Below are positions 37,348 through 52,979 of a stretch of DNA of 64,000 nucleotides, piece after piece. The DNA is from Parcubacteria group bacterium (GTDB lineage: Bacteria; Patescibacteriota; Minisyncoccia; Moranbacterales; GCA-2747515), in NCBI GenBank assembly GCA_041660065.1, contig JBAZXC010000001.1, forward strand, positions 136,535 through 200,534. The letters run 5' to 3'. A program made the translations under genes and the position numbers. Numbering within the stretch: position 1 is the first letter of the stretch; the number at the start of each line of letters is the position of its first letter. The notes beneath the pieces were generated by a model. The model had not been told where the DNA came from. It did no database searches and saw only the letters and a list, made by a program, of their open reading frames with translations.

Positions 37348-37350
37348 TGC

Positions 37351-38313
37351 TTATCGCAAGAAAGTGATCCAAAAAGGTAATGTGAGAATTGCGAATGTTG
37401 TGCTCAATACGATCGATCGGGCGATGAAATTTTTGTCCAATTTATATTGATCGGCGAGAGCAAACGGTGTGACACCCAGTGGCATCGCGGATTCAAGGAT
37501 CGATAAAACGTGTTCTGATGGCGCTATGCGGAAAAAAATCAGACCAAAATAAAATAATGCCGGAAGGATCATCAGTGATGCAAATGAAAAGATGGCAACA
37601 GGATACCAATCACGCAGGTTGCCGCGTGTGGATTGTCCGATAAATACACCGATGATGATCAGGACAACCGGCGTGACGGAAGCAACGAGCATCGTAAATG
37701 CCGTGTTGAGAATTGTCGGAATGGGGAGATGCAGTACGCTTATGAGTATGCCACAAAATACGGCGATGAGCATCGGATTTGTGCAAAGAATTTTTACGAT
37801 GGTCTTGACGACGGATGTAGTAGATGTTCGGCGTGTGAGCTCTAAATATCCCACACCGATGCCAAACAATCCAAAAAGATATACAGCAACGATCAGGCTG
37901 AGTTGCGGGAGGATCGTGTTATCAAAAACGCTTGTGAGGAGGGGAATCCCGAGATAGGCGACATTGCTAAACATGAGACAGACAATAACTGTATCGCGCA
38001 GTTCTTGTGTGAGGCGGAAAATGTGTCCGATACCATAGGAAAGAATGAGAACAAAGATGATAAATGCAAAGTTTATAAGGATCAGGCGCAGTTCTGTGGA
38101 GAGTGAAAACGTTGTTTTTGCAAGGGATGTAAAAATGAGAAGGGGCAAGCCGATCTTGAGAACGAACTGATTGAGATTTTCGGACCAATCTTCTTTGATA
38201 AAATTGATATACCGTAAGAACGCCGCACCAAAAATAATGAAAAATAGCGGCGCAATGATCAAAAATACTTCACGCATACTCTTATAAAAATAGTAAAACA
38301 CATTATGAGGCAA
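37351..38313 (-). CDS. AEC-family (auxin efflux carrier-like) transporter
   Basis: 10-TM protein with the AEC pattern (…LLIFTSLAKT… N-terminal half repeated in the C-terminal half). Confidence 0.7.
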   Translation of the reverse strand: MPHNVFYYFYKSMREVFLIIAPLFFIIFGAAFLRYINFIKEDWSENLNQFVLKIGLPLLIFTSLAKTTFSLSTELRLILINFAFIIFVLILSYGIGHIFRLTQELRDTVIVCLMFSNVAYLGIPLLTSVFDNTILPQLSLIVAVYLFGLFGIGVGYLELTRRTSTTSVVKTIVKILCTNPMLIAVFCGILISVLHLPIPTILNTAFTMLVASVTPVVLIIIGVFIGQSTRGNLRDWYPVAIFSFASLMILPALFYFGLIFFRIAPSEHVLSILESAMPLGVTPFALADQYKLDKNFIARSIVLSTTFAILTLPFWITFLR

Positions 38314-38415
38314 TGATCCTCTTTGTCAATTATACCATATTTTTTGTTATGAGCGTTTGAAAAAAAACCCAAAGTGCGATAAGGTTAGGATATACAATTT
38401 TACTACATCTAAATT

Positions 38416-41382
38416 ATGGAGCGATACGAACATCAAAAGATCGAGGCAAAATGGCGAGAAGCGTGGACTGCTGCCAATGTGTACAAAACGACAGAGGATC
38501 CGAAAAAAGAGAAATTCTACATTCTCGATATGTTTCCGTATCCGTCAGGTGACGGTTTGCACGTAGGTCATCCCAAGGGATACATTGCAACAGATGTGAT
38601 CTCGCGGTACAAAAAAATGAATAACTTCAATGTATTGCATCCGATGGGGTGGGATGCTTTTGGACTTCCGGCAGAGCAATATGCACTCAAAAATAAAATG
38701 CACCCAAAGATCGCGACAGATCACAATATTGCAACGTTTAAAAAGCAGTTAGAAAAGATCTCGCTGAACTATGATTGGGAACGAGAGATTTCCACAATAG
38801 ATCCATCGTTTTACAAATGGACCCAGTGGACGTTTATCCGCATGTTCAAAAAAGGATTGGTGTTTCAATCCAATGAGCCGATCAACTGGTGTCCGTCATG
38901 CAAGACGGGACTTGCCAATGAGGATCTGGAAAATGGTGCGTGTGAACGATGTGGTACGCCGATCGAAAAGAAAAAGATCCCGCAATGGGTGATCAAGATC
39001 ACGGATTATGCGGACAGACTTCTCGCTGATCTGGATAAACTTGAATGGCAAGATCACATCAAAGAATTGCAACGCAATTGGATCGGACGATCAGAGGGTG
39101 CAAAAATTCAATTCAAAATTACATGTCATCCTGAACTTGTTTCAGGATCTCAAACGAATGAACAGTTATATATTGACGTATTTACCACGCGTCCGGATAC
39201 GCTTTTTGGTGCAACCTATATGGTACTCGCTCCTGAACATCCACTTGTTGATAAATTTCTCTCTTGTCATGCTGAACTTGTTTCAGCATCTCAGGCTGAT
39301 GCAAAAGAGATCCTGAAACAAGTTCAGGATGACAAAAAAAACTGTTATTGTGCTATTTTAAATGATGGCGAAGTTCGACAATATCAAAAACAAACGCTTA
39401 CAAAGACAGAGATCGAGCGCACGACAGAAGGACGAGAAAAAACCGGTGTGAAGCTCGAGGGTGTGATGGCGATCAATCCTGCGAATGGTGCGGAGATCCC
39501 GATCTACATCGCGGATTATGTCTTGGCTGATTATGGCACAGGCGCGATCATGGCGGTGCCGGCACACGATGAAAGGGATTGGGAGTTTGCAAAGAGATAT
39601 GATATTCCGATCGTGCAAGTGGTTGCCGAACTGGATGAAACCAAAGGAAAGTATACGGTACGTGATGATAAGAAAAGTGAAGAGCGACGTAGTATCACTG
39701 TCATTATCAAGCATTGGGCAGAGGATAGATATTATTGTCTCGATTGGCGAAAATCTGATAATGACTGGACGAGTTTTGTGATCGGCGGAGTTGAGGATGG
39801 TGAGACGATCGAAGAAACGGCAGTGCGTGAGGCGCGAGAGGAAACGGGGTATCAAAATATGCGTGTCGTGCGTCGTGTAGGTCAGGTGATCCGCAGTCGA
39901 TTTTTTGCAGCGCACAAAGATATCAATATGAAAGACGCGGTACGTGAGTGTGTCTATCTCGAACTCATAGACGATGCATTTATTGCACCGGATGAAAAGC
40001 ATACAAAAAATCATGATGGCATGTGGATAGAAAAAGAAGACGTTGATGAGTTTCTCAATCTTCCTGCACAAAAAACGTATTGGCGGCAATTTCTCACGGG
40101 TGAAGACGTGTATACTGGTAGTGGCGTGATGATGAATTCCGGAGAGTTTGATGGTATGGATAGTGAAGAAGCTAAAAAGGCAATTACAGAAAAAGTGGGC
40201 GGGGAGATGACGGTGAATTACAAATTGCGCGATTGGGTATTTTCTCGCCAACGATATTGGGGTGAGCCGATCCCGCTCATTCACTGTGCGAAATGTGGTG
40301 TCGTGCCAGTACCGGAAGAAGAACTGCCTTTGACACTTCCTGAAGTTGATAACTATGAACCGACAGGCACGGGCGAGTCACCGCTTGCGGCGATTTCTGA
40401 TTGGGTCAACACAGTTTGTCCCACATGCGGAGGAGAAGCAAAGCGTGAGACCAATACGATGCCACAATGGGCTGGGTCAAGTTGGTATCACCTGCGTTAT
40501 ATCGATCCCAAAAACGATACGGCAATTATTGATAAAGACAAAGATGCATACTGGTCGCCAGTCGATTTTTATGTAGGTGGTGCAGAGCATGCGACGAGAC
40601 ATCTCATCTACGCGCGATTCTGGCACAAGTTCCTCTTTGATATCGGTGCGGTCGCCTATGATGAGCCATACAAAAAATTACAGACAGTCGGACTGATCAT
40701 GGCAGAGGATGGACGCAAGATGTCCAAGCGATGGGGCAATGTGATCAATCCGGATGAAGTGATCGATCGCTTTGGCTCTGATACATTTCGCATGTATGAA
40801 ATGTTCATGGGACCATTTGACGCAACCGTTGCGTGGAGCACGGAGAGTTTGATCGGTCCGCGCAAATTCCTCGAACGTTTGTGGAAATTTTTTGGCAATG
40901 GATTCACCGGCAATTCAGATCCTCAGATCCAGAAAGTATTGCACAAAACGATCAAAAAGGTGGGCGAGGATATCGATGCGATGAAATACAATACAGCGAT
41001 CGCACAGATGATGATCCTCATGAACACAATGGAAAAACACAAAACAATGACAACGGGAGATATGGAGAAATTTCTCCTTATCCTCTCACCGTTCTGTCCG
41101 CACATTACGCAAGAATTATGGTCGCAGTTGGGTCGTGATTCATTCATCTTGCAAGAGCAGTGGCCAATGTATGATGCGGAAAAGATCATCGATGACGAGA
41201 TCACGCTCGCAGTGCAAGTAAACGGCAAAGTGCGCGATCAGATCACCGTGAGTGCGGATATCACAGAAGAGGACGCCAAGGCACAAGCGCTTGCAAGTGA
41301 AAAGATCCAAAAATACACCGCCGGCAAAGACCCAAAAAAGATCATCTTTGTAAAAGGGAAGTTGATTAGTATCGTTGTGTAA
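38416..41382 (+). CDS. leuS: Leucyl-tRNA synthetase with an inserted Nudix hydrolase domain
   Basis: HIGH (HVGHPKGY), CP1 editing domain (TTRPDTLFGATYMVLAPEHP…AVPAHDERDWEFAKRYDIPI), KMSKS (KMSKRWGN), anticodon-binding domain. Between …YDIPIVQVVAE and …NSGEFDGMDSEEAK (E. coli has ~20 aa here) lies a ~160-aa insertion with a perfect Nudix box GGVEDGETIEETAVREAREETGY. Confidence 0.9.
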   Translation: MERYEHQKIEAKWREAWTAANVYKTTEDPKKEKFYILDMFPYPSGDGLHVGHPKGYIATDVISRYKKMNNFNVLHPMGWDAFGLPAEQYALKNKMHPKIATDHNIATFKKQLEKISLNYDWEREISTIDPSFYKWTQWTFIRMFKKGLVFQSNEPINWCPSCKTGLANEDLENGACERCGTPIEKKKIPQWVIKITDYADRLLADLDKLEWQDHIKELQRNWIGRSEGAKIQFKITCHPELVSGSQTNEQLYIDVFTTRPDTLFGATYMVLAPEHPLVDKFLSCHAELVSASQADAKEILKQVQDDKKNCYCAILNDGEVRQYQKQTLTKTEIERTTEGREKTGVKLEGVMAINPANGAEIPIYIADYVLADYGTGAIMAVPAHDERDWEFAKRYDIPIVQVVAELDETKGKYTVRDDKKSEERRSITVIIKHWAEDRYYCLDWRKSDNDWTSFVIGGVEDGETIEETAVREAREETGYQNMRVVRRVGQVIRSRFFAAHKDINMKDAVRECVYLELIDDAFIAPDEKHTKNHDGMWIEKEDVDEFLNLPAQKTYWRQFLTGEDVYTGSGVMMNSGEFDGMDSEEAKKAITEKVGGEMTVNYKLRDWVFSRQRYWGEPIPLIHCAKCGVVPVPEEELPLTLPEVDNYEPTGTGESPLAAISDWVNTVCPTCGGEAKRETNTMPQWAGSSWYHLRYIDPKNDTAIIDKDKDAYWSPVDFYVGGAEHATRHLIYARFWHKFLFDIGAVAYDEPYKKLQTVGLIMAEDGRKMSKRWGNVINPDEVIDRFGSDTFRMYEMFMGPFDATVAWSTESLIGPRKFLERLWKFFGNGFTGNSDPQIQKVLHKTIKKVGEDIDAMKYNTAIAQMMILMNTMEKHKTMTTGDMEKFLLILSPFCPHITQELWSQLGRDSFILQEQWPMYDAEKIIDDEITLAVQVNGKVRDQITVSADITEEDAKAQALASEKIQKYTAGKDPKKIIFVKGKLISIVV

Positions 41383-41389: not shown

Positions 41390-41416
41390 AAGCACCTCAA
41401 AAGAGGTGTTTTAAAA
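41390..41416 (+). terminator. Rho-independent terminator after leuS
   Basis: GCACCTC-aaaa-GAGGTGT followed by TTT. Confidence 0.55.
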
Positions 41417-41607
41417 TTATTTTTCATAACGTATCCGAATATGAGAAGTTTTTGACTTCAAATAGTTTTAAAATTTGTAAGAATTGATACAAAATTTTCG
41501 TCTGATATTTTTTGAAACGATTATCGGTAAATGGGTTGGAATATTTTTCTTTCAAATCTATGCTTTCTGCATAAATTGCCATGTGAAACAAAAAGGAATG
41601 ATAATCA

Positions 41608-42312
41608 TCAATTTTCAACGTGATATTTTTTAACAATCATCCTATTAAAATTTTCCTTGCCGTTTTTGCCGGGAACCAGTTTAATCGTATAATCGTCTAT
41701 AAAAATTTCTCCCCTCATGTTAGGCGCCGATAAAACAAATGACTGATATTCGCCGCTTTCAGCGGCCGGATCTATGCCCTGGGATTGAAGCTCATTAACT
41801 AGTGCAGAGTTAATTTCTCTTCCAATATAATCTTTTGATAGGTTGCCTTCTCTTATACTCAAAATAACTGATTTAATTCTGTTGGATATTACGGAATTCA
41901 TATAGTTAGCACCTTTTTCCCTCGAAGAGCATGCATCTCGAGATGGCCTGATTATCTCAACCCCCAAAGCACCAGCAAGCATATCTCCAATGCCTGAGGT
42001 ATACGGATGCCATAAGTCGCCAGTAACAATGTGAGTTATTTTGTCTTGAATTATTAATTTATTTAATTCGACAAATAATTCATGCAGGTATAAGTTATTT
42101 GAATTGATTATTATTTCTTTGTGCGGCAGGCCAATTAAGCTTAATTGCGTTTTTCTTAATTTCTCATCGGCTTCCGGACCGGCATGCAATTGAGTATCGC
42201 CGATCGGCGATTTGATGCTCACTAAATATTCAATGTCATTCATTTCCCGCGCTCTTATTAAGGAATAAAAGCTATCTTTCCCTCCGCTAAATAATACGAT
42301 TGTTTTTCTCAT
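41608..42312 (-). CDS. PP-loop ATPase of the MJ0570/Dph6 (diphthine-ammonia ligase-like) family
   Basis: MRKTIVLFSGGKDSFYSLIRA… carries the SGGKDS PP-loop, followed by …IVTGDLWHPYTS…. The track extends it to a TTG at 42420; the ATG at 42312 is preferred. Confidence 0.6.
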   Translation of the reverse strand: MRKTIVLFSGGKDSFYSLIRAREMNDIEYLVSIKSPIGDTQLHAGPEADEKLRKTQLSLIGLPHKEIIINSNNLYLHELFVELNKLIIQDKITHIVTGDLWHPYTSGIGDMLAGALGVEIIRPSRDACSSREKGANYMNSVISNRIKSVILSIREGNLSKDYIGREINSALVNELQSQGIDPAAESGEYQSFVLSAPNMRGEIFIDDYTIKLVPGKNGKENFNRMIVKKYHVEN

Positions 42313-42507
42313 AATTTTATCCGTTTTTTCTACGACCAAAGAAGCATAAAAACACCTTTTCCCCTTTATAAAAAAATTAAAAATCAAATTTTCGTCCCTG
42401 TTCAAATCACAAATCTTCAAACTATCGCCAAGATAAAAAATTTATTTCGCCACAACGTATCGCAATGTCCGACGTTTGCCTTAGCGAATGTGGCTTTATT
42501 TTTTTCC

Positions 42508-43530
42508 TTATTTTTCTCCAGTCGGTAAAGATTTTACAAATTTATCAAAATCCGATTCTATTGACTGTGTTTTATTATATTCATCATATTCTTGAAATGC
42601 TTTTTGTTCTGCTTGGGCGCGAGAAATCGTGCCTTTTCCCTCAAGCACTTCATACTTATTAAACTCCAAAAAGTTGTTCACGGACTCCGCCAATTTTTCC
42701 ATCGTAAGAGCAGTGCGATTTTCAATCAGTCTTTCGATGTAATCAAAATAGCCGACGATGCCTCTTTCTAGTTTCTTTATTTTATCCTCAGTAAGATAAT
42801 TTTTGGCAATAATTGTGTCTGATTTCAGAATTCTGCTCTTTGGCGAATTTTTCCAAGTCTTGAGTCCCATGAAAGGTTTTTGCTTGTCTACTGTTTCATA
42901 AACAATCTCAGCTGCGGTTTTGCCGGTAATGGCAAAATGAAATTTATTTTGGATCATTGCATAAAAATTCTTGGCAATTTCTGACGTGGGGCTATAATCC
43001 ATGCTACATTCAGCAAAAATATCCGTAATTTGCTGATAAATTTTTCTCTCACTGGCACGAATAGAACGGACTCTTTCCAAGAGTTCGAGAAAGTAATCTT
43101 TGTCGAAATATCTTCCGTTCTTTAATCTCTCATCATCCATGGTGAAACCTTTGATGATGTATTCCTTAAGCCTTTCCGTTGCCCAAATACGAAACTGAGT
43201 GGCTTGCGATGAGTTTACCCGATAGCCAACCGAAATAATGGCATCAAGATTATAGAACTTTGTTTGGTATTTTTTGCCATCATTGGCAGTGTATTCCAAA
43301 ATGGAATGAACTGAATTTTCCAGCAATTCGCCACTTTCAAAGATATTCTTTAAATGCTTAGCAATAGCTGGTTGTTGCACACCAAACAATCTGGCCATCT
43401 TATCTTGGTTAAGCCAAATATTTTCGTCATGAAAGTAAATTTCCACTTTTACCTTGCCACTTGGCGCTGTGTAAAGCAGAAATTCCGTCAGTTCGTCTTT
43501 GATGGTGATTTGGTGATTATTTTTAGTCAT
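42508..43530 (-). CDS. RhuM-family protein (virulence/mobile-element-associated DNA-binding family)
   Basis: …KVKVEIYFHDENIWLNQDKMARLFGVQQPAIAKHLKNIFESGEL…YNLDAIISVGYRVNSSQATQFRIWATERLKEYIIKGFTMDDERLK… is a strong RhuM signature. Confidence 0.8.
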   Translation of the reverse strand: MTKNNHQITIKDELTEFLLYTAPSGKVKVEIYFHDENIWLNQDKMARLFGVQQPAIAKHLKNIFESGELLENSVHSILEYTANDGKKYQTKFYNLDAIISVGYRVNSSQATQFRIWATERLKEYIIKGFTMDDERLKNGRYFDKDYFLELLERVRSIRASERKIYQQITDIFAECSMDYSPTSEIAKNFYAMIQNKFHFAITGKTAAEIVYETVDKQKPFMGLKTWKNSPKSRILKSDTIIAKNYLTEDKIKKLERGIVGYFDYIERLIENRTALTMEKLAESVNNFLEFNKYEVLEGKGTISRAQAEQKAFQEYDEYNKTQSIESDFDKFVKSLPTGEK

Positions 43531-43565
43531 ATTATCTTAGGCATTAGATCTTCCATAAATTTGTT

Positions 43566-43627
43566 AATATTCGCCTATCTTGATTATATCACCAAACTTG
43601 CTATTTTGTCAGCGCAATTTGCCTGCC
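43566..43627 (-). promoter_or_regulatory. Promoter module for rhuM (minus strand: CTGACA-18-TGATATAAT extended -10); ~60-bp module repeated at 46848-46910
   Basis: The rc of 43581-43627 is AGGCAGGCAAATTGCGCTGACAAAATAGCAAGTTTGGTGATATAATCA. The second copy upstream of ORF 46029..46796 shares TGATTATATCACyAAACTTtGCT.TTG.C..GCGCAATTTGyCTGCCT. Confidence 0.5.
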
Positions 43628-43901
43628 TGCCGGTGGGCAGGGGAGAGTCCCGATATCCGTTATTATGTATCAAGTGAAAAATCGGGGATGACGCATTTGC
43701 ATCACCCCCGTTGTTGTGAGATGAGATCAAGTGTCTCTTTCCCTAGGCCATTCTCACCCGGCCAAAGGTTTTCGCCTTTCTGCTGTTTACCCGCTGGGTC
43801 GGAGTCGTCATTTCTCCTCCGCATGGGGTAGCTTGGTCTGGCCGCTTGTAAGGGAACAGCAGTTATTCCTTGCAACAGGATCAGGGTGCGTTAGGTGAAC
43901 C
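43621..43901 (+). ncRNA. Candidate structured non-coding RNA of unknown class (GC-rich, multiple hairpins, ends in intrinsic terminator)
   Basis: A ~280-nt segment at about 55% GC inside a ~32% GC island. No credible ORF on either strand. Hairpins include CCTGCC/GGCAGG, CCCGAT/ATCGGG, GGGGATG/CATC(a)CCCC, AAAGG/CCTTT, CGGAG/CTCCG, and TTGTAAGGGA/TCCTTGCAA with a GAACAGCAGTTAT loop. It ends with ATCAGG-gtgcgttaggtgaa-CCTGAT plus TTTTTT (43870-43901). I could not match it to RNase P, SRP, tmRNA, 6S or rRNA consensus. Confidence 0.3.
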
Positions 43902-44410
43902 TGATTTTTTATCCTATTGAGTTATTAACAACAAGCAGCATACCATCCTAGCGCCAATTAGACGAAAATTCTATAACTATCCGTATGAATCACCTCCTTT
44001 TTGTTCAGAATTTTTCTAAAAATATTTTTCATAACGTTTAAGAATAAAAGAAGTCACACGCCGACTAAAAACGTAAAGCTTATCCTATCCTCGAAACTTG
44101 TTAAATAGCACTGGCTCTATTATATCACAGAACTAAGGCGAGGGATTTGGAAAAATTCCGAGCCGAGGCCATTTTACTTTTATTCTTTGTTAGGCGAGGG
44201 TTTGATTTTTTTCCTTGATGTAAGAAATATAAAATAAAAAATCAAAAGCGTGGCGTCCCCTTAAGTTTTAAAGAAAAAATTTTGTTATTTTTAGTTTATA
44301 AAAGACATTTTTCTTAATATTGACACCACATAATAAATTTGATTAAATTAAGCATAGCTCTACACACAAGATGTGCATAAACTAGAAGTCCTAGCCGAAA
44401 GGAGACTAAG

Positions 44411-44575
44411 ATGGGAAATCTTGAAGAGTACTATGACAAGGACTACGGCAGACGGTATTATAAGCTAACAGCCGAAGCAGAAAGGAAAAAGCGACAAAAA
44501 GAAAAAAGGGAGGAGGAGGAACTAAAGCAAAAGGGGACGTGGCCTCACGGTATGCCCTGGGGAGGGAAAAAATAA
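44411..44575 (+). CDS. Small basic hypothetical protein (54 aa)
   Basis: TTGACA-17-TTAAAT promoter at 44322. AAAGGAGA RBS 7 nt upstream of the ATG. Translation MGNLEEYYDKDYGRRYYKLTAEAERKKRQKEKREEEELKQKGTWPHGMPWGGKK. An intrinsic terminator follows at 44620-44655. Confidence 0.35.
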   Translation: MGNLEEYYDKDYGRRYYKLTAEAERKKRQKEKREEEELKQKGTWPHGMPWGGKK

Positions 44576-44619
44576 GACCATGCCACGGATGGTATTATCT
44601 CTTGGAGAAACTATCTTAC

Positions 44620-44655
44620 CGCCAATACACCAAAAAGGTTGAGGCGGTTTTTTCT
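44620..44655 (+). terminator. Rho-independent terminator
   Basis: CCGCC-aatacaccaaaaaggttga-GGCGG followed by TTTTTTCTTTG. Confidence 0.5.
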
Positions 44656-44715
44656 TTGTAAAAAATTTCAAAAAATGGCTGTAAAAAAATAAAATTTAAG
44701 GGCAAAGTCATATTT

Positions 44716-44898
44716 TTATTGGTATGTACAAATATAACTAGAGGTTTCTTTTGCTACGATAGCAAATGGCGCACCTAGCTTGACTACAACTTTTTGACCT
44801 GGCAAACACGGTTCATTATTGATTTCCAACGAACCTGTTAAGCATTGTATGGTTTCTTCACGATCAGGCGTAAAAGTATAATTGCCAGGCTCGACCAC
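44716..44898 (-). pseudogene. C-terminal fragment of a cupin (cupin_3/DUF861-like) protein
   Basis: …EPGNYTFTPDREETIQCLTGSLEINNEPCLPGQKVVVKLGAPFAIVAKETSSYICTY matches the C-terminal ~60 aa of small cupins. An in-frame stop lies immediately upstream, so the N-terminal half is missing. Confidence 0.3.
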
Positions 44899-44921
44899 TT
44901 AGCCCTTGCGGATATCGAGTG

Positions 44922-45437
44922 TTATCGGATGTAATTAAAATTTTTATATTCCTTATGAAGTATGTTTTTAGGTCTGTGTTTACCTTCAGATTGATTTAAT
45001 ATTTTTTTAAACTGCACATTGTCTAGAGTAACAGAACCAAAAAGCTGTATTAAAATTGAAGCCAGCGCGAGTACCGAAGAAATTACAATTGCGAAAAGTG
45101 CCATGTTTTTTGCCGTTTTCGATGATCTTAATGCCTCTCTGAATTCACGATAATCAATATAATTGAAGAAAGCATCGTGATTGAGAATAAATTTATCATT
45201 CTCAATATTTAAAAACATTGTATTTCGTACCGGGAGCATTCCACCATGTCCTTCACGATCAGTATGTACGAATTGCCCGCCATTTAACGTATCACTAATT
45301 TGCTTATTGACAATTTTTTTCTCCCAGTCATTTAGGTCAAGATTTTTTTCTAATTCTTCTTGGGTAAAACCGTCTGGATTTTTATATCCAAATTCAGATA
45401 TTCTTATGTATAAATTTTTTTCTTCTGGGTGTTGCAT
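44922..45437 (-). CDS. Hypothetical protein with C-terminal TM helix
   Basis: 171 aa, AT-rich. No family recognised. Confidence 0.4.
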   Translation of the reverse strand: MQHPEEKNLYIRISEFGYKNPDGFTQEELEKNLDLNDWEKKIVNKQISDTLNGGQFVHTDREGHGGMLPVRNTMFLNIENDKFILNHDAFFNYIDYREFREALRSSKTAKNMALFAIVISSVLALASILIQLFGSVTLDNVQFKKILNQSEGKHRPKNILHKEYKNFNYIR

Positions 45438-45570
45438 TTTTTATTAAAAGAAAGATAAAAATTTTAATTATTTCATAACGTATTGGCATCATGCGAGGTG
45501 CAAAGCATTTGGGTGAAGCGTAGCGGAGCCGGATATGCCGTGTTGTGCGATGTAAATTTTTATAATCCAC

Positions 45571-45978
45571 TTATTTAAATGGCTTAAAACCTTGTTTAAT
45601 CAGATTCTGCTGGGGAATAAATAGGGGTTGGGGTGGGTTAGTCCAATCAAACCATGACCATTGTTCACATTTTTTTGGTTCCATAATTTGCAAATCGCCC
45701 GATTCATATTCAGCAGTCATAAATATAGTGATGTAGTGTTTACCTTCAATCGGAAAAATGTCGTTGGTAGCAGCGACAAAGTTTACATTTTTAATGCTCA
45801 AGCCAGTTTCTTCCAAAGTTTCACGTGCCGCACATTCTTCCCATGACTCATTAAATTCAAGGTGACCACCAGGAAAACACCACGAACCGTCACCGTGAGC
45901 ATTTTTACGTTTACCAAAGAGAACTTTGCCATCTTTTAAAACGAGAACTCCAATTCCGACTTTTGGTCTATTTTCCAT
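45571..45978 (-). CDS. Nudix hydrolase (MutT-like)
   Basis: Nudix box GGHLEFNESWEECAARETLEETGL (G-x5-E-x7-REUxEExGU). Confidence 0.8.
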   Translation of the reverse strand: MENRPKVGIGVLVLKDGKVLFGKRKNAHGDGSWCFPGGHLEFNESWEECAARETLEETGLSIKNVNFVAATNDIFPIEGKHYITIFMTAEYESGDLQIMEPKKCEQWSWFDWTNPPQPLFIPQQNLIKQGFKPFK

Positions 45979-46028
45979 ACGTTCAAATATTATTTCCTTA
46001 TTATTAAGTGGGGTAGGACTTTATTAAT

Positions 46029-46796
46029 TTATTTTTCAACAAAATAAACTCCGATGTGTTTGTCGTACAAAAGCTCATCTAAGAGAATTATAATTTTTTC
46101 TGAAATTTTATTTCCTTCTTTAATGTCTTCTTTTGTTAATTCACGACCATGAAATATTTCACCTCTTTTTTGACTGAAATATTGTATCGCTAAATATAAC
46201 TCCTTATCGATTATACCACTTTTGAAGAGGTTTCTGCTTTGATTTAAAACTGATCGATTTCTAAGTTCATCATTTTTTGAAGCCAATGAAAGCTCATTTA
46301 GATTTTCCTGGATTTTTTTATAATTCAGAAAAAATTTATATAAATACCGGCTTAAGTCTGGAATAATTTCTTCATCTTTTTCTGTTTTAACTTTTTTATC
46401 TATTGTAACACCCTTGGTTTTATCGTCTAAATATTTTTTCAACTCCTCAACCTCTTTTTTGTCAAATGGGTGAGTGATAACCTGAACACTTTGTTGCTGG
46501 TTTACAGTAGAAATAATGGTATTTTGTAGTGAAGCAAATTTTTCAATAGTCTCGTGCCTCAAACTTTCAATGTCTTTTTTTATTTTTAAAACATTTAAAA
46601 TACTCAGCTCACTAACTAGTGGCAGCAAGACAACAGATACTATGACAATAAAAAGCATGTTACTAAAAAAGTCTCCTTTGATTGAAAAAATATTGGCTTG
46701 GTAAAGGATAAATACAATAGCTAACAAAATGAATGCTATCAGATTGTACCAGTTCTTTGTATTCATAAAATAAATTAATAAAGCCTCATTTTTCAT
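46029..46796 (-). CDS. Hypothetical membrane protein (2 N-terminal TM helices, coiled-coil middle)
   Basis: 255 aa. Its start codon lies inside the repeated leader element TTTTCATAACGTATCCGAATAT (46790-46811). Confidence 0.45.
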   Translation of the reverse strand: MKNEALLIYFMNTKNWYNLIAFILLAIVFILYQANIFSIKGDFFSNMLFIVIVSVVLLPLVSELSILNVLKIKKDIESLRHETIEKFASLQNTIISTVNQQQSVQVITHPFDKKEVEELKKYLDDKTKGVTIDKKVKTEKDEEIIPDLSRYLYKFFLNYKKIQENLNELSLASKNDELRNRSVLNQSRNLFKSGIIDKELYLAIQYFSQKRGEIFHGRELTKEDIKEGNKISEKIIILLDELLYDKHIGVYFVEK

Positions 46797-46847
46797 AACG
46801 TATCCGAATATCTGAGGTTGCGCCCGTGTTTAATGGCTAAAACTTCA

Positions 46848-46910
46848 AACATTCTCTTATTGTGATTATATCACTAAACTTTGCTTTGCCGAAGCGCAAT
46901 TTGTCTGCCT
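46848..46910 (-). promoter_or_regulatory. Second copy of the ~60-bp promoter module (minus-strand TGATATAAT) driving ORF 46029..46796
   Basis: See the element at 43566-43627. A partial third copy (CTATTATATCACAG, 44116-44129) faces a 24-codon minus-strand ORF that starts in leader-repeat copy B. Confidence 0.45.
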
Positions 46911-47163
46911 ATGACGATTTGTGTGCCACCGCTAAAGCTTTAGCGACACGCGGTCGGCCGTAGTCCTGCCTACCGGTAGGTAGGCAATCTCACTTAGGTG
47001 TTCTGTTTTTCGTGCAATGATCGAGATTGCTTCGTCGCTACACTTCGTTCCGCTCCTCGCAAAGACTATGGTACAGCGCTTGACTAATGGTAATTAATAT
47101 TATAACCTAATGTAAATACTTGAACGAATAGCATCAAACGAAACCAATGGATAGGAGGAAAAT

Positions 47164-47361
47164 ATGTGCGACAGGAAAGATGTATATAAACTTGTTGAGG
47201 CAATTGCGCGCGCTAAAATGCATTTGAGTGTTAAGCAGATGGATCATTCAAAAGAGTGCAATGCAAGTGAAGGAAGAGGTTGTATTTGTGGAGCTGAAAG
47301 AGTGAATGATGCAATAAAAAAAGCAACAGAGGAATTATCTATTGATAGAATGAAATTCTAA
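47164..47361 (+). CDS. Small hypothetical protein (65 aa, Cys-x-Cys motif)
   Basis: GGAGG RBS 7 nt upstream of the ATG. A TTGACT promoter-like sequence lies upstream. The protein contains …GRGCICGAERV…. Confidence 0.35.
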   Translation: MCDRKDVYKLVEAIARAKMHLSVKQMDHSKECNASEGRGCICGAERVNDAIKKATEELSIDRMKF

Positions 47362-47456
47362 TCGTAGTACATTGATTGTGCTAAAACCATCTCGGTCCAC
47401 TGGTAATAAACAGTGGACTTTTTTATATAAGTATCAAAAGGGCTATATATGATGTA

Positions 47457-49770
47457 CATGTTTTCCTTTAATTCGCCGAAGGCGGATTGCTCTTAAAAAG
47501 AATTCAATTTTGTTATTTTGTTTTGGGGAAAGGGCAGAGGAGTTAGGGGTGAATGCCCTTACACCAAAAATCCTTATTATAATTTTTGCATATCACTTAT
47601 TTCATTTTCGATTTTTGTTATTTCAGCCTGAAGTTTTTCGTATAATTTAAAATCAAACTTTTCCTTACTATATAATTTAATTTTACACTTTTCTTTTTGT
47701 ATACAAATATATTGAATGGGATTAAAAGTTTTTTCTTGCCATATTGAAACCGCGTATATTACAAGAAGGGGTATCAACCCCATTATGTATGTTAAGGGCT
47801 CAATTTTATTCCATCCAAATTTTGAAATAATATATACCCAACCTATGAAATAAATAAGTAGCAAAAAGACCGGTGTAAGTTTATACCTTAAGTAAATCTG
47901 TTTGTTGATTTTTTTATCAAATTTATTTTTGGCATCTTCAAGATAAGAAAAATTATTACGCTTTTCTGATAATAATTCCATTTTTATTTTCATGGTTTCG
48001 GTTATAAGTTTTTTTTCTGTATCACCTTGTTTTTTTATTTGATTATCTAAGAGGAGGTTTATACTTTCAACTTCTTTTTTTAGTTGTGTGTTTTCTTCCT
48101 CATGTTTTTTTGCTTTATTTTTAAAATGCTCTTGTTCTTCAATAATTTTGTCTAAATTATTTTCAGCCAATGATTCTAAAATAAAAGATATATTATCATT
48201 CATGATATCTTCAGGTTTTTTTGCCTGCTTTCTTAAGTTGGTAATGGCAAGCGCGACTTGATTATCGTTAAGTTTGCCATTTTTAAATCTTTTTTGTAAC
48301 TCATCAAATTTATTTCCTACCGATTTGTTTAATTGGCTTGAAAGCAGAATCTGAGCTTTTGTTATTACATCAAAAATCTTAGGAAAAGTATTTGTTCCAA
48401 AACCTTTATTCAATTTAAACCAAAATTTGTCAGTTAAAAAGTGTAAAGAGGTAGCCAGGGGGACTTCTCCCGATTTTCTAATGCTTTTATGCCACGCAAC
48501 TTGTAGGGTGGTGTTATTGCCTGATAGAAGTATGTATTTAATATGTTCAAAATTATTATTATATTCATCGGCTCTCTTGATGCTTACGAAGTTAAGTAAC
48601 TCAAGGTTATCTTTAATTTCATTTACGCCAATAGACGCTGCGATTGATTGTTCAATGTTTTCTTCTGCTTTATGAAAAGTTATGTTGTATTTATGATTTT
48701 CTTTTTCATAGTAATTTAGATAATCATCTGCATGAATGTCATTTTTGTTTAATAAGTCAAAAAATATAGTTTTTTTCTCTACAACATCGCTCTTGCTCTT
48801 GCTGCCATTAAGTATGTTATTCATTGCTGGACGCCCTGGGTCAACAACCTCTCCTCCAGATATTATGTATTCTGCTTTTGAAAAATAATTGTGAATATTT
48901 TCTTCAGTCTTTAAAAAATATCTTAGTTTAATAAGTGGTTCCGAAGCTTTCTGGTTTATCTCTTTTACGAATGAATGAAATTCATCAAACAAAGACTTGA
49001 ATAGTTCTCCATTAAAACCAGCAAAATCAAATAAAATTTCTGTATCAAGAAAAATGGTTAATTTCGTATTCCATGAGCCAACGTTACCAATGTTGTCACT
49101 AAACATTATGCCTGTATACAAAACAACCCCTTCTTTTATGCTTTGTAATCTATTGATAAAATCTGGGTTTGGGCTTTTGCTTATTATGAATGCACTGATA
49201 TATTCTGAATATTTTTGATTATTTGATTTATCAAGTAGAAATGAGCAAAAGGAATGCATTATTTCTTTTTTATCAGTCTCGTTTATTTCTTGCTTTTTTT
49301 GAGAAGAAATAAAATCTACTATTTGTTCTATTATTTCATTATTACCTTTAGTAATTTCATCTTTTTTAGGAATAAGGCTCGGGCTTTTAATATTTGATAA
49401 ATTTGCAAAGTATTTGCCTTGGTCTTTGTTTAAAAATTCTTTTAGACGACCTAGCGAAGTTTTTACAACGGCCTCAGGTATATGAAAATTAAAGGTGTCA
49501 TTCAACAAATATGTTATTTCCTGTAAAGTGAAACTGTATTTGGCCTCAGTTATAATTATTTCTTGAAGAAAGCATGAAAGCACACCATATACATCTTTTT
49601 CACTGTCATAAAGTTCTTTAAACAAGGCTAGAGATGCTATTCGACCACTTTCTTCATTAATATTTTCCATAGAAATAAATTAAATAAATTCCTTATTCCC
49701 CTTATTAATTAATAAAAAAACAAAATTGAATTCTTTTTAAGAGCTGGGCGAAGCCCAAAAGGAAAACATG
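47457..49770. mobile_element. 2.3-kb cassette bounded by ~52-bp imperfect terminal inverted repeats, carrying a single 697-aa ORF (no transposase recognised)
   Basis: Left IR 47457-47514 is CATGTTTTCCTTTAATTCGCCGAAGGCGGATTGCTCTTAAAAAGAATTCAATTTTGTT. Right IR 49719-49770 is AACAAAATTGAATTCTTTTTAAGAGCTGGGCGAAGCCCAAAAGGAAAACATG. The outer 26 nt and inner 12 nt are identical. The centres are different small hairpins. Confidence 0.45.
47577..49670 (-). CDS. Hypothetical 697-aa protein: N-terminal globular region, long coiled coil, C-terminal two-helix membrane anchor
   Basis: A 210-nt window at 32% GC preceded the ORF call. The C-terminal region …LTPVFLLLIYFIGWVYIISKFGW…LTYIMGLIPLLVIYAVSIW… forms two TM helices. 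The preceding coiled coil is …NTQLKKEVESINLLLDNQIKKQ…. The N-terminal part contains …NTKLTIFLDTEILFDFAG… (PIN-like? unverified). Confidence 0.55.
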   Translation of the reverse strand: MENINEESGRIASLALFKELYDSEKDVYGVLSCFLQEIIITEAKYSFTLQEITYLLNDTFNFHIPEAVVKTSLGRLKEFLNKDQGKYFANLSNIKSPSLIPKKDEITKGNNEIIEQIVDFISSQKKQEINETDKKEIMHSFCSFLLDKSNNQKYSEYISAFIISKSPNPDFINRLQSIKEGVVLYTGIMFSDNIGNVGSWNTKLTIFLDTEILFDFAGFNGELFKSLFDEFHSFVKEINQKASEPLIKLRYFLKTEENIHNYFSKAEYIISGGEVVDPGRPAMNNILNGSKSKSDVVEKKTIFFDLLNKNDIHADDYLNYYEKENHKYNITFHKAEENIEQSIAASIGVNEIKDNLELLNFVSIKRADEYNNNFEHIKYILLSGNNTTLQVAWHKSIRKSGEVPLATSLHFLTDKFWFKLNKGFGTNTFPKIFDVITKAQILLSSQLNKSVGNKFDELQKRFKNGKLNDNQVALAITNLRKQAKKPEDIMNDNISFILESLAENNLDKIIEEQEHFKNKAKKHEEENTQLKKEVESINLLLDNQIKKQGDTEKKLITETMKIKMELLSEKRNNFSYLEDAKNKFDKKINKQIYLRYKLTPVFLLLIYFIGWVYIISKFGWNKIEPLTYIMGLIPLLVIYAVSIWQEKTFNPIQYICIQKEKCKIKLYSKEKFDFKLYEKLQAEITKIENEISDMQKL

Positions 49771-49949
49771 TATTCCATATAACTGGTTATCATGCAAAAT
49801 TTCAATCGTATAATAGCTCAAATTTGTATGTTATGCGAACATTTGGTATCACTTCTCATATTTGATCTATGGGCAAAATATACCATATTATTTATGAGTC
49901 TCCAAGTTCGTTGCTGGTTGATTTCTTGCACAAACGGTTGATGTATGGT

Positions 49950-50200
49950 ACAGTGTGAAGTACGATGCCGATGAAACTGCTGACACAGTGGAGGCAAAAG
50001 GAAGAAATTTTGTCGCAAAACGATTGAAAGAGTAGAACCTTTCGGGTATGCCCGTTATAGCAAACTGATAAAGTGAGTGATCCGCAATACACTGTGATCA
50101 CTAAAAACGGTGGTACCACGGTTTTTTACCAAAAAAGATCGTCCGTTGGGAGCAAATACGTTTGTTTTCGGCGGACGGTTTTTTGGTCACAAATCTTATC
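49950..50200 (+). promoter_or_regulatory. T-box riboswitch leader of aspS (candidate Asp GAC specifier)
   Basis: AGTAGA box (50030-50035). F-box CCCGTTA (50051-50057). T-box core AAAAACGGTGGTACCACGG (50103-50121). Terminator hairpin CGTCCG…CGGACG plus TTTTTT (50143-50190). Candidate specifier GAC followed by A at 49982-49985. The track's N-terminal extension of aspS (50073-50216) is this leader translated. Confidence 0.5.
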
Positions 50201-50216: not shown

Positions 50217-51989
50217 ATGCTACGAACACATACATGTGGAGAATTAACACATAAAGATATCGGACAAAAAGTTACCTTGTCCGGCTGGGTGCATCGTCGC
50301 CGTGATCATGGCGGTGTGATCTTCATCGATCTGCGTGATCGCTATGGATTGACGCAAATCACGTTCAATCCAGAGCGCGGTGCGGATGTGCATGCGCATG
50401 CGGACAAATTACGCAATGAATGGGTAATTCAAGTGGAGGGAGAAGTCATCGCGCGTCCGGATGATATGATCAACAAAAATCTCCAGACAGGTGAGATCGA
50501 GATCGAGATCAGTGCGCTTGTTGTCCTCAATAAGTCCAAGACGCCACCGTTTGAAATCGGCGATGATAAACTTGAAGCCAATGAAGCGATCCGTCTCAAG
50601 TATCGGTATTTGGACTTGCGTCGCTCGAAATTGCAAAACATGCTTGTGCAAAAAGACAAATTTATCAGCGACATACGCACATTTTTCCATGCGAAAGGTT
50701 TTTGTGAAGTGCAAACGCCGATCCTCGCGAACTCGTCACCGGAAGGTGCGCGAGATTGGCTTATTCCATCTCGCTTATACCATGGGAAGTTTTATGCATT
50801 GCCACAAGCACCGCAACAGTTCAAGCAATTATTGATGGTGGGCGGTGTGGACAAGTATTTCCAGATCGCGCCGTGTTTTCGTGATGAGGATCCGCGGATG
50901 GATCGTCACTTCGGTGAGTTTTATCAGTTGGATTTTGAGATGAGCTTTGTGGAGCAGGCGGATATTTTTGCACTGATGCAAGAATTGTGGATCGATCTGA
51001 CGAAAAAATACAGTACAAAAACACTTGTCTTTACCGATTTCCCGCAGATTCCATGGAAGGATGCGATGAACCGTTATGGGTCCGACAAACCGGATTTGCG
51101 ATTTGATCTCGAAATCGTTGACGTATCGCATCTTGTCAAAGAGTGTTGTTTTGCCGTCTTTGGCAAAGCATGCGAAAGTGGCGGCGTGGTGCATGCGTTG
51201 AAAGTGGATGGTGGCGGTACGGCATTCTCCCGCAAAAATATCGATGATCTCACAGAGTTAGCCAAGACAAAGGGCGCGAAGGGATTAGCATACATTGTTG
51301 TCAAAGAAAACGAATTACAGTCACCGATCGTGAAATTCCTCGGTGAAGATGTGGCACAAGCAATTGTTGTACATGTAAAAGCGCGTCCGGGTGACATCAT
51401 CTTTTTTGGTGCGGACTCATGGCGTGTTGTGTGCGAGAGTTTGGGTGTGGTACGCAACAAATGTGGCGATATGCTCGGACTCAAAGATCCGACAAAAGCG
51501 GCGTGGGCCTGGGTTGTGGATTTCCCGATGTATGATTACTCGGAGATCGAGGATGGACGCATTGATTTTTCTCATAATCCTTTTTCTATGCCACAAGGTG
51601 GAATGGAAGCACTTACTACTCAGGATCCGATGGATATTGTGGCGTATCAATTTGATCTTGTACTCAACGGCTTTGAGGTCTCAAGCGGAGCGATTCGTAA
51701 CCATGATCCTGAGATCATGTATGCGGCATTTGCGATCGCGGGGTATAGCAGAGAAGATGTTGATGCAAAATTCGGACACATGGTGGAAGCATTTAAGTAT
51801 GGTGCGCCGCCACATGGTGGCAGTGCGCCGGGAATCGACCGTGCGTTTATGGTGTTGACTGACTGTGATTCGATCCGTGATATCTATGCGTTTCCCAAAG
51901 ATGGGCAAGGACGCGATGCGATGCTGGATTCACCGTCGTTTGTTGATCCAAAGCAATTGGAAGAACTGGGGATCAAGATCGTGGAATAA
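50217..51989 (+). CDS. aspS: Aspartyl-tRNA synthetase
   Basis: MLRTHTCGELTHKDIGQKVTLSGWVHRRRDHGGVIFIDLRDRYG… (compare E. coli [43 protein letters not shown]). Class II motifs 1-3 (…FRDED…, …GGSAPGIDR…). Confidence 0.9.
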   Translation: MLRTHTCGELTHKDIGQKVTLSGWVHRRRDHGGVIFIDLRDRYGLTQITFNPERGADVHAHADKLRNEWVIQVEGEVIARPDDMINKNLQTGEIEIEISALVVLNKSKTPPFEIGDDKLEANEAIRLKYRYLDLRRSKLQNMLVQKDKFISDIRTFFHAKGFCEVQTPILANSSPEGARDWLIPSRLYHGKFYALPQAPQQFKQLLMVGGVDKYFQIAPCFRDEDPRMDRHFGEFYQLDFEMSFVEQADIFALMQELWIDLTKKYSTKTLVFTDFPQIPWKDAMNRYGSDKPDLRFDLEIVDVSHLVKECCFAVFGKACESGGVVHALKVDGGGTAFSRKNIDDLTELAKTKGAKGLAYIVVKENELQSPIVKFLGEDVAQAIVVHVKARPGDIIFFGADSWRVVCESLGVVRNKCGDMLGLKDPTKAAWAWVVDFPMYDYSEIEDGRIDFSHNPFSMPQGGMEALTTQDPMDIVAYQFDLVLNGFEVSSGAIRNHDPEIMYAAFAIAGYSREDVDAKFGHMVEAFKYGAPPHGGSAPGIDRAFMVLTDCDSIRDIYAFPKDGQGRDAMLDSPSFVDPKQLEELGIKIVE

Positions 51990-52010
51990 TTTTTTGTTGG
52001 AAGTAAAAAT

Positions 52011-52973
52011 ATGATCATTGATGATGTAACGATTGATGTAAAGGCGGGTCGTGGAGGGGATGGCGTGGCGCTTTTTGCGCGCGCAAAATTCGATCAGGGT
52101 CCGACTGGCGGAAATGGCGGACGCGGTGGCAACGTTTTACTCAAAGGTGTTTCCGATTTGGGTGCCCTTCGACCGTTTCGCTCGACCAAAAATGTAAAAG
52201 CGGAGGCGGGAAAGAATGGGGAACAAAACACCTGCACGGGTGCTGATGGCGCAGGGGTTACGATCTCTGTCCCGGTGGGAACGGTTGCACATGACCTGAC
52301 GCATGACAAAATATATGAGATCATTTCTGTCGGTCAAAAGGTTGTGGTGGCAAAAGGGGGAAATGGCGGTTTCGGCAATCATCATTTTCGTTCCAGTCGA
52401 AACACATCGCCAAAAATAGCCAAAGCGGGTCAGGAAGGGGAACACATCCGATTGCGTCTGGAGTTAAAGATGATCGCTGACGTGGGATTTGTGGGTTATC
52501 CCAATGTGGGCAAGTCCAGTTTGCTCAATGAGCTTACCAATGCGCAGAGCAAAGTTGCCAATTATAATTTCACGACGTTGGAACCGCATCTTGGTGTGTA
52601 TTATGATCTTATTCTGGCGGATATTCCGGGATTGATCGAAGGCGCGGCAGAGGGGAAAGGTCTGGGGCATAAATTTTTGCGACACATTGAGCGTACGTGC
52701 ATCCTTTTTCACTTCATTGCGGCGACAAGCACGCGTCCTGTAGCGGATTATCGTGCAATTCGCAAAGAATTACACAAATTCAATCCGTTGTTGTCTGAAA
52801 AACCGGAATGGATCGTTGTAAGCAAGACGGATGAATGCACGGAAAAGAAAGTTCAATCTGTGGTGAAAAAATTACAAAAGGTCAATCCGCATGTCGTGAC
52901 AGTGTCGATCTTGGATGATACAATGATGACGGATATTAAAAAGATCTTGAACGATATCAAAGATCACAAGTAA
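52011..52973 (+). CDS. obg: GTPase Obg/CgtA (short form)
   Basis: Obg fold with the glycine-rich repeats (GGDGV…GGNGGRGGNV). G domain GYPNVGKSSLLNELT, DIPGLIEGA, SKTD. Confidence 0.9.
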   Translation: MIIDDVTIDVKAGRGGDGVALFARAKFDQGPTGGNGGRGGNVLLKGVSDLGALRPFRSTKNVKAEAGKNGEQNTCTGADGAGVTISVPVGTVAHDLTHDKIYEIISVGQKVVVAKGGNGGFGNHHFRSSRNTSPKIAKAGQEGEHIRLRLELKMIADVGFVGYPNVGKSSLLNELTNAQSKVANYNFTTLEPHLGVYYDLILADIPGLIEGAAEGKGLGHKFLRHIERTCILFHFIAATSTRPVADYRAIRKELHKFNPLLSEKPEWIVVSKTDECTEKKVQSVVKKLQKVNPHVVTVSILDDTMMTDIKKILNDIKDHK

Positions 52974-52979
52974 TTCATC

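Follow-up and report, generated by a model that had tools for sequence, protein, structure and literature searches.

In a 64,000-nt stretch of the genome of a Parcubacteria group bacterium (GenBank assembly GCA_041660065.1, contig JBAZXC010000001.1; hereafter the window), the genes leuS and aspS are separated by 8.4 kb of DNA that is poor in guanine and cytosine (GC) and runs from the leuS terminator to the aspS T-box leader (41.4-49.8 kb). We consider it probable that this region is a mosaic flexible islet of accessory genes, which has no integrase and was shaped by several gain, loss and recombination events rather than by the arrival of one element. Most of its identifiable cargo is best explained as coming from the conflict and defense gene pool. 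As a whole, the islet is an ordinary feature of a known kind, and its value is mainly descriptive: a small genome of the candidate phyla radiation (CPR), with near-perfectly co-oriented genes, retains a pocket in which accessory genes can be gained, shuffled and lost without a visible integrase. The parts worth following up are an inverted-repeat module near the aspS end and the protein it encodes, which resembles the mitochondrial calcium uniporter (MCU).

The region is the lowest-GC stretch of the entire window. Its GC content is 0.339, compared with 0.436 elsewhere in the window. Taken as a group, the other windows of 8.4 kb have a mean of 0.432 (standard deviation 0.015, minimum 0.412), about six standard deviations above the region. 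At 1-kb resolution, GC content falls from 0.43-0.47 within leuS to 0.35-0.39 directly past the leuS stop codon (41382), reaches its lowest values (0.28-0.30) at 47.5-49.5 kb, and is back to 0.46 within aspS. The departure is also seen in tetranucleotide usage: the strand-symmetric distance, normalized for base composition, is 0.35-0.44 for the region, 2-3 fold higher than in the 4-kb windows clear of it (0.12-0.21 each). GC content at third codon positions averages 0.32 in the nine open reading frames (ORFs) of the islet versus 0.44 in 42 core ORFs (Mann-Whitney p = 4e-4). Orientation differs as well: seven of the nine islet ORFs lie on the minus strand, whereas the plus strand, with a positive GC skew throughout, carries almost every other gene of the window. 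The sharp fall after the leuS terminator and the rise at the aspS leader, described in an initial annotation made from the sequence, are borne out by the sliding-window and tetranucleotide analyses, as is its description of islet genes mostly opposing the core genes. The compositional anomaly is genuine, well delimited and compositionally foreign.

The drop in GC content is uneven. A block at ~0.37, which holds the genes for a PP-loop ATPase and a RhuM-family protein, is followed by a GC-rich patch (43600-43900) and then by a block at 0.28-0.39 (44.7-49.8 kb). Together with gene stubs, a fragment of a Ppnp gene and duplicated modules, these two blocks argue for several events rather than one. 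The island proposed in the initial annotation is supported in part: its foreign composition, opposing orientation and accessory content stand, but the region is a mosaic of at least two compositional blocks with the stubs, the fragment and the duplications. A single insertion between leuS and aspS can be neither demonstrated nor refuted from the available relatives.

The distribution of two protein families bears on whether the region was acquired. Homologs of the RhuM protein are found at 84-94% identity in Moranbacteria, Magasanikbacteria and other contigs, and at 73% identity in Campylobacterota, Desulfobacterota and Chlorobi. Identity of AspRS to its relatives is 72% at best and ~50% outside the group or across phyla, and relatives of LeuRS, after a single close one described below, share 65% identity or less. 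RhuM is therefore far more similar across lineages than either synthetase, which argues for its circulation between lineages. The family of the 697-residue MCU-like protein has members dispersed among Bacteroidota, Desulfobacterota and Pseudomonadota as well as plasmids and viral contigs, and identities across phyla are 42-49%. Indirect as it is, this evidence favors horizontal flux as the probable source of most of the region.

An inverted-repeat cassette recurs around different cargo

Within the low-GC block, a 2.3-kb cassette (47446-49781) is enclosed by two inverted arms that share 75% identity across 80 nt; in their 34-nt core, identity rises to 94%. Both arms have the same layout: GTTATATG..TACATGTTTTCCTTT, then a GC hairpin with a three-base loop, then GCTCTTAAAAAGAATTCAATTTT. 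The hairpin itself differs by arm (AATTCGCC-GAA-GGCGGATT on the left, TGGGC-TTC-GCCCA on the right). The arm motif, TACATGTTTTCCTTT-N(10-25)-GCTCTWAAAARGAATTYAATTTT, occurs in the window in just these two arms and is absent from IMG/VR.

The arms recur on a 5,900-nt contig (L084) assembled from another sequencing run (SRR13727534) of an unrelated metagenome. This contig starts at the outer end of a right-type arm (92% identity over 95 nt) and stops at the outer end of a left-type arm (83% over 131 nt, a span that takes in the 3′ untranslated region), and each arm retains its own hairpin. Between them lie four genes, encoding a 309-residue protein, an N6 methyltransferase of the Eco57I/TaqI_C type, a 340-residue protein and a homolog of the 697-residue protein. 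The gene common to both cassettes is 69% identical at the nucleotide level and 47% at third codon positions (67% protein identity). Since the identity of the arms is well above that of the third codon positions, the arms are conserved beyond their cargo. Furthermore, the arms of L084 have no run of at least 31 nt in common, so the inverted repeat does not explain why the contig stops at both ends. A further hairpin motif of ~30 nt, GTTTTCTYCGCTWCGCTACGAAAACGATT, occurs in L084 at 96-125 and 3650-3680, preceding the first gene and the MCU-like gene, and is absent from the cassette of the window; these hairpins may mark the site at which the block of three genes with the methyltransferase entered or left the cassette.

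We conclude that the cassette is a discrete module with functional ends. The recurrence of the arms around other cargo is the sole direct evidence for modular mobility that the region offers. The ends could serve in transposition, site-specific recombination, inversion or regulation; the arms may be sites that an enzyme encoded in trans recognizes or recombines, or they may be conserved regulatory ends. If confirmed, the combination of conserved inverted arms and variable cargo may mark a form of cassette movement that needs no internal transposase or integrase. We also considered the arms as a general feature of the 697-residue family and rejected this, four homolog loci being without them.

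The cassette resembles miniature inverted-repeat transposable elements and 'transporter insertion sequence' elements in its two inverted arms of ~75 nt, in forming a discrete unit, in having arms conserved above the cargo, and in its variable cargo (one gene versus four). It differs from them in that neither the cassette nor its vicinity holds a transposase, no target-site duplication is recognizable, and two instances are known, none in IMG/VR. A different hairpin in each arm is also atypical of simple terminal inverted repeats.

A predicted uniporter-like pore in the cassette protein

The 697-residue protein belongs to a family with more than 594 full-length homologs, whose members measure 680-700 residues. 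A profile of 38 full-length homologs matched MCU chains in the PDB with E-values of 6e-11 to 1.5e-6 at profile positions 529-686, that is, over the last 160 residues. In this alignment, the profile segment 'lgWnkmEqltyi' falls on 'ysWDIMEPVTYF' of MCU. W620 and E624 are invariant across the 38 homologs, and the Asp of the selectivity filter is replaced by Asn both in the consensus and in the protein of the window (WNKIEP for WDIMEP). Against the Pfam family PF04678 the protein scores 19.7 bits, short of the gathering cut-off of 30.8; many of its homologs bear a precomputed PF04678 match.

Structure prediction is consistent with this assignment. The AlphaFold (AF2) model, with a mean predicted local distance difference test score (pLDDT) of 82, shows two membrane helices preceded by a long coiled coil, and Foldseek matched it to MCU with a probability of 1.0; matches of its N-terminus to winged-helix proteins were weak. 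The central domain (residues 95-505) was modeled with a pLDDT of 87 and a predicted template modeling score of 0.86, and this model had no match in PDB or BFVD with an E-value below 0.2. A PIN-like fold, considered for this domain on account of an 'IFLDTE' motif, is not claimed, the only match being to VapC with a probability of 0.33.

In common with MCU, the protein has the layout of coiled coil, first transmembrane helix, selectivity loop, second transmembrane helix and coiled coil within its C-terminal 160 residues, as well as the invariant Trp and Glu. Unlike MCU, it carries WNxME, with Asn for the filter Asp, and thereby retains one acidic ring of the DIME filter (Glu) rather than both. 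It is furthermore bacterial, lacks the N-terminal domain of MCU, has ~500 residues before the pore, and has no EMRE or MICU partner. Bacterial sequences of the MCU family have been included in published phylogenies (PMC7423614); a full-text literature search found no paper that joins 'calcium uniporter' with 'anti-phage'.

Gene neighborhoods give this family a possible role. Its distant members (29-33% identity) lie on enterobacterial plasmids, an example being WP_121572294.1, beside Hok/Gef, recombinase and transposase genes, and distant homologs (31-33%) also occur in the IMG/VR contigs L172 and L170. One viral-contig homolog has a divergently oriented CI-like repressor, with HTH_3 and Peptidase_S24 domains, as its immediate neighbor, and two are near umuDC-like genes (positions concerned: L172, 5384-7261 and 7267-7959; L170, 4683-6758). 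The place beside a CI-type repressor is where prophage-encoded exclusion genes are usually found. Restriction-modification (R-M) genes are adjacent or one gene away in three of the four fetched neighborhoods with usable flanks, a small sample from which the window is excluded: one homolog adjoins an Eco47II R-M system (L169), another the methyltransferase block of the second cassette (L084), and in the third case a single gene separates the homolog from a type I R-M system, with a HerA-like ATPase close by (L086/L087).

Together, these findings make the 697-residue protein a candidate abortive-infection channel. It could be a cation channel and its sensor in a single chain, such that the sensing of an infection would open the MCU-like pore and the membrane potential would collapse, aborting the infection. 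The bacteriophage lambda genes rexAB, located beside the CI repressor, bring about abortive infection through a membrane-depolarizing effector. A shared logic, in which a sensor works through a small cation channel, is plausible, and a distant homolog of the 697-residue protein likewise stands beside a CI-type repressor. There is no sequence relationship to RexAB, however, and in the 697-residue protein sensor and pore would be one polypeptide. If confirmed, the family would tie the mitochondrial uniporter, through its ancestry, to conflict systems of prokaryotes and would offer a testable candidate for an abortive-infection channel made of one protein. A further-reaching interpretation, which we regard as doubtful, is that 47446-49781 represents an undescribed non-autonomous cassette system of the CPR, with arms recognized in trans, that moves defense genes between genomes, and that its cargo is an abortive-infection effector of a new type, a single protein whose sensor, novel in fold, gates a bacterial homolog of the MCU pore.

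Genes of the islet

Scans against Pfam, PADLOC, PHROGs and NCBIfam, together with a repeat search, found the gene inventory of the initial annotation (PP-loop ATPase, RhuM, Nudix hydrolase, cupin remnant, transmembrane proteins, small ORFs, repeats and inverted-repeat cassette) to be accurate. The features of the region are collected in Table 1.

Table 1. Features between leuS and aspS, in order of position in the window
Feature	Position	Strand	Basis and remarks
leuS intrinsic terminator	41390-41412	+	Hairpin CACCTC-aaaa-GAGGTG, then T run; read from sequence; left edge of low-GC region
D1 repeat, copy 1: 5′ untranslated region plus ATGAAAAA start module, 14-codon stub	41402-41449	-	24-nt exact match to 46788-46811
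PP-loop ATPase, Diphthami_syn_2 / MJ0570 superfamily, 234 aa	41608-42312	-	PF01902 E=3.6e-21; SGGKDS motif
RhuM-family protein, 340 aa, candidate single-gene defense/toxin	42508-43530	-	PF13310 E=8e-101; PADLOC PDC-S05 E=2e-143
Promoter module D2/D13 upstream of RhuM	43566-43628	-	-35 CTGACA, 18-nt spacer, extended -10 TGaTATAAT; promoter scan, 11/12 matches with TG
GC-rich non-coding segment (~52% GC, ~220-300 nt)	43683-43900	-	Strong intrinsic terminator of 12 pairs at 43710-43683
Second truncated gene start	43963-44134	-	D4 promoter copy 44119-44134, D1 copy 2 44007-44054, 22-codon stub 44031-43963; repeat search and alignment
Basic small ORF, 54 aa	44411-44575	+	Shine-Dalgarno AAAGGAG; no family in scans
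Ppnp (cupin-fold nucleoside phosphorylase) C-terminal fragment, 60 aa	44716-44898	-	PF06865 E=1.8e-6
Orphan, 171 aa	44922-45437	-	Hydrophobic helix at C-terminus; no family
Stand-alone Nudix hydrolase, 135 aa	45571-45978	-	PF00293 E=8e-23; phrog_1198 E=5e-26
Membrane orphan, 255 aa	46029-46796	-	Bears D1 start module (46771-46818) and D2/D13 promoter copy (46848-46910)
Second GC-rich non-coding patch, of short palindromes	46893-47100		No Rfam match
Cys-containing small ORF, 65 aa	47164-47361	+	Shine-Dalgarno AGGAGG; own terminator 47394-47419; sequence reading
Left inverted-repeat arm	47446-47522		8-bp GC hairpin AATTCGCC-GAA-GGCGGATT; repeat pairs I1, I7
697-residue protein	47577-49670	-	Tentative winged-helix N-terminus, ~400-aa central domain, long coiled coil, MCU-like two-helix pore
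Right inverted-repeat arm	49711-49781		5-bp hairpin TGGGC-GAA-GCCCA (plus strand; TTC loop is the reverse complement); upstream of the 697-residue gene
aspS T-box leader	49962-50180	+	Truncated Stem I; terminator 50137-50180; right edge of region

The RhuM protein matches its family domain over the full length, scoring 337 bits against the PF13310 cut-off of 33.7 and covering profile positions 3-248 of 252. Its N-terminus is Bro-N/Ant-like (Pfam E=0.004; anti-repressor family phrog_5060 E=3e-4). A toxin role has been proposed for RhuM in R-M/PrrC loci (PMC3710099), and the islet copy could be a toxin-type effector.

The PP-loop ATPase most likely starts at M37 of its ORF, in agreement with the NCBI annotation, and thus comprises 234 residues. 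It reaches 85 bits against the Dph6 equivalog family TIGR03679, below the cut-off of 197, and is a member of the wider PF01902 family only. The protein is identical to NCBI entry WC819_00870 from a metagenome-assembled genome (MAG) labeled 'Parcubacteria group bacterium', and a second islet protein is identical to WC819_00905 of the same MAG; in exact-protein look-ups, the LeuRS, RhuM and Nudix proteins of the window were not on record, and proteins of the flanks led only to pieces of this genome from a single run (SRR18595301).

The 255-residue membrane orphan, the Nudix hydrolase, the 171-residue orphan and the Ppnp fragment likely form a minus-strand operon. Only 42 representative clusters among 1.84 billion match the membrane orphan at E<=1e-3, and scans of the 171-residue orphan against Pfam, PHROGs, NCBIfam and PADLOC came back empty. 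The Nudix protein matches the PADLOC family PDC-S07 weakly (E=1e-12). We also asked whether it is a paralog of the NUDIX insert in LeuRS and rejected this possibility (24% identity, E=0.015). The Ppnp fragment corresponds to positions 29-92 of the 92 in PF06865, with ~28 N-terminal residues gone, and its match to NF007875 is weak. Together with the small ORFs, the Nudix and orphan membrane genes may simply be accessory genes.

Gene stubs, duplicated promoters and non-coding patches

Several elements of the islet occur more than once. D1 modules are present at 41402, 44007 and 46771, and only the third is followed by an intact gene, that of the 255-residue orphan. The first copy is the remnant of a truncated gene start, as its stub is only 14 codons long and runs into the leuS terminator. 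A promoter module is duplicated in a similar manner. The promoter of the RhuM gene proper, located at 43583-43612 by a promoter scan, is strong and has an extended -10 element, and the module that contains it is copied upstream of the 255-residue gene (46848-46910; 78% identity over 65 nt). Its -10 part recurs once more at 44119-44134 (family D4).

The GC-rich segment at 43683-43900 is a candidate structured RNA or the degraded relic of a gene downstream of the 22-codon stub. On the minus strand, its predicted fold is more stable than those of shuffled sequences (z=-3.0; 0/100 shuffles as good), and on the plus strand it is no better than them (z=-0.6). It has no Rfam match even at E<=10, the ORFs embedded in it have no Pfam match, and no copies were found among the 168 fetched loci (L001-L168). 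In the second GC-rich patch, a 33-nt palindromic unit (47005-47037) recurs inverted at 21465-21497, 25 kb away and outside the islet, with 88% identity, which suggests a dispersed family of short repeats in this genome.

Boundaries and relatives of the islet

The initial annotation found no integrase or tRNA at either boundary, and this holds after wider searches. No integrase, recombinase or transposase was detected among the islet ORFs of at least 54 residues (Pfam, PHROGs, NCBIfam and PADLOC) or, for the flanking genes at ~28.6-39.2 kb and 50.3-63 kb, in their precomputed Pfam assignments. ARAGORN detected neither tRNA nor tmRNA genes across the 64 kb, and a search for att-like direct repeats showed that the two edges have none in common longer than 9 nt.

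For a comparison of gene order, we collected 80 leuS loci by searching GTDB species genomes with the C-terminus of leuS, and 80 aspS loci by searching JGI metagenomes with AspRS. The partner gene was within 10 kb in 0/80 leuS loci and 0/80 aspS loci, and no other gene of the window was nearby either. One locus, L001, has a LeuRS with 87% identity over the C-terminal 429 residues and is the only one so close. There, leuS is followed directly by compact genes on the same strand, with no such low-GC region, and a comparison with window positions 28000-52000, which took in 10 kb to each side of leuS, found no other gene in common. Two explanations offer themselves, an extremely fluid gene order in this group or a relocation of leuS itself. 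The best relatives of aspS (60-72% identity, JGI metagenomes) are likewise not syntenic with the window. Because the relatives have no gene order in common around leuS or aspS, the synteny test is uninformative rather than negative: relatives with the same order and composition, which would have indicated an ancestral region, did not appear, and neither did an empty leuS-aspS site.

Part of the window could be compared with an independent assembly. Three contigs of the Logan assembly of run SRR18595301 (L081-L083) reproduce 28580-39150, 47485-49733 (coordinates inferred from the gene position in L083) and 50292-62973 at 100% identity. Two of the points at which these contigs break fall on repeats, one being a 28-nt palindrome within leuS and the other the core (34 nt) that the inverted-repeat arms share.

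Weighing the explanations

We propose that the islet, on the lagging strand, would have been built up and eroded by independent events of gain, loss and recombination. A number of observations weigh against this proposal or its parts. Presence or absence of the islet in close relatives with conserved flanks was never observed, so that acquisition is judged from composition and homolog distribution. None of the Logan contigs retrieved spans the junction at 41.4 or at 49.8 kb, and both junctions are seen in the source assembly only. As to defense, the PADLOC scan returned no validated system and candidate families only (RhuM, PDC-S05; Nudix, PDC-S07). It also has no family for the 697-residue protein, whose only match, MkoA at E=2.8e-4, we judged not significant. 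The association of this protein with defense genes comes from only five to six gene neighborhoods, one of which (L085) contains nothing suggestive of defense. As to mobility, the arms are known from two places only and are absent around four other homologs (L085, L086/L087, L088 and L169). Family scans found no transposase in the cassette or in the cargo of L084, and the ends of the cassette (GGGCTA/TATATG... and ...CATATAAC/TGGTTA, the slash denoting the boundary) show no clear target-site duplication, L084 having no flanks. Finally, low GC content and lagging-strand orientation would also fit weakly expressed, weakly selected resident genes, and the family of the PP-loop ATPase comprises ~61 proteins, of which the few named members are all from CPR bacteria.

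These last points lead to an alternative that we regard as unlikely: lineage-specific dispensable genes of ancestral origin, resident on the lagging strand, could have drifted to low GC content because selection was weak and mutation biased toward AT, and could have degenerated where they stood, with no horizontal acquisition. Such a history fits the PP-loop gene, for which a homolog with 88% identity exists in another Parcubacteria MAG (WC682_04260); given this homolog and a small family with named members in the CPR only, the gene may be native to the lineage and not an import. It also accommodates the pseudogene-like stubs and fragments and the lack of an integrase, tRNA or direct repeat, and gene order is so poorly conserved that absence from relatives says little against it. 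It fits poorly, however, with a RhuM protein whose conservation across phyla (73%) and across CPR classes (84-94%) is far above that of core proteins, and with the scatter of the 697-residue family over phyla, plasmids and viral contigs. A module bounded by inverted repeats that holds different cargo in another metagenome, and a departure from the rest of the window that shows 2-3 fold in the tetranucleotide signature and not in GC content alone, likewise argue against it.

We think it improbable that the region is what decay has left of one larger mobile element (a prophage, integrative element or transposon, for example) from which the integrase and ends were deleted. The Bro-N/Ant-like N-terminus of RhuM, the matches of the Nudix protein to phage families, the truncated genes at the left edge and the distant homologs of the 697-residue protein in prophage-like contigs would agree with such an origin. 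Against it, Pfam, PHROGs and NCBIfam scans of the islet ORFs found no structural, replication, integration or transfer genes of any kind, and IMG/VR holds no close relatives of three islet proteins (the 697-residue protein, the PP-loop ATPase and the 255-residue orphan). The central non-coding part has no match in phage and plasmid DNA collections, and the presence of two compositional blocks, and of a cassette with boundaries of its own, points to more than one event. An artifact of assembly or binning, in which foreign low-GC sequence was joined at repeats, is very improbable: Logan contigs do end or start at 39150, 47485, 49733 and 50292 and leave both junctions unspanned, but such an artifact would need two independent misjoins falling neatly between a terminator and a leader, the breaks lie at identified repeats and not at the islet edges, L083 reproduces the interior of the cassette at 100% identity in the same sample, and a PP-loop family with named members only in the CPR is as expected for the host.

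A mosaic islet of this kind has known counterparts. It shares with classical integrative genomic islands a deviating composition, and lacks the integrase, tRNA site and att repeats of that class. It is closer to flexible islets and defense islands, in which R-M, toxin and abortive-infection genes cluster within variable parts of a genome and which it resembles in composition, orientation and the absence of housekeeping functions, in its RhuM (PDC-S05) and Nudix genes, pseudogenes and recombination scars, and in a gene family that adjoins R-M systems elsewhere. Relative to these it is very small (8.4 kb), lacks a validated defense system as well as R-M genes of its own, and is anchored by neither an integrase nor a tRNA, and strain variability was not directly observed.

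Flanking genes

The leader of aspS matches the Rfam T-box family RF00230 (49962-50149) with 57.5 bits (E=9e-11), under the gathering score of 93, and contains the T-box sequence AACGGUGGUACCACG. Its Stem I is ultrashort, with 4 nt in place of 74 model positions, and the loop CUGACA would present GAC (Asp) as the specifier codon. T-box leaders with ultrashort Stem I are known from actinobacterial ileS. In common with these, the aspS leader has the T-box sequence, the antiterminator and terminator, and a short Stem I that appears to present the codon; it differs in scoring below the Rfam threshold and in a specifier deduced from its loop. In three relatives (L089-L091, AspRS 68-72% identical), the sequence upstream of aspS yielded no T-box.

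On the other side of the islet, LeuRS (988 residues) carries a NUDIX insert after its editing domain (window 39658-40095, residues 415-560; PF00293 E=3.2e-12 at residues 446-545), which the 795-residue LeuRS of L001 lacks. The leuS gene also contains three in-frame palindromic repeat units of 28-29 nt (39124-39151, 39265-39293 and 39307-39334) that are absent from L001. They encode 'CHPELVSGSQ' and 'SCHAELVSASQ...KQVQDDKK' and flank the conserved TTRPDT segment; the independent short-read assembly breaks at 39150, exactly at one of these units. Further upstream, the window encodes a class A RNase P RNA (26911-27272, 118 bits).

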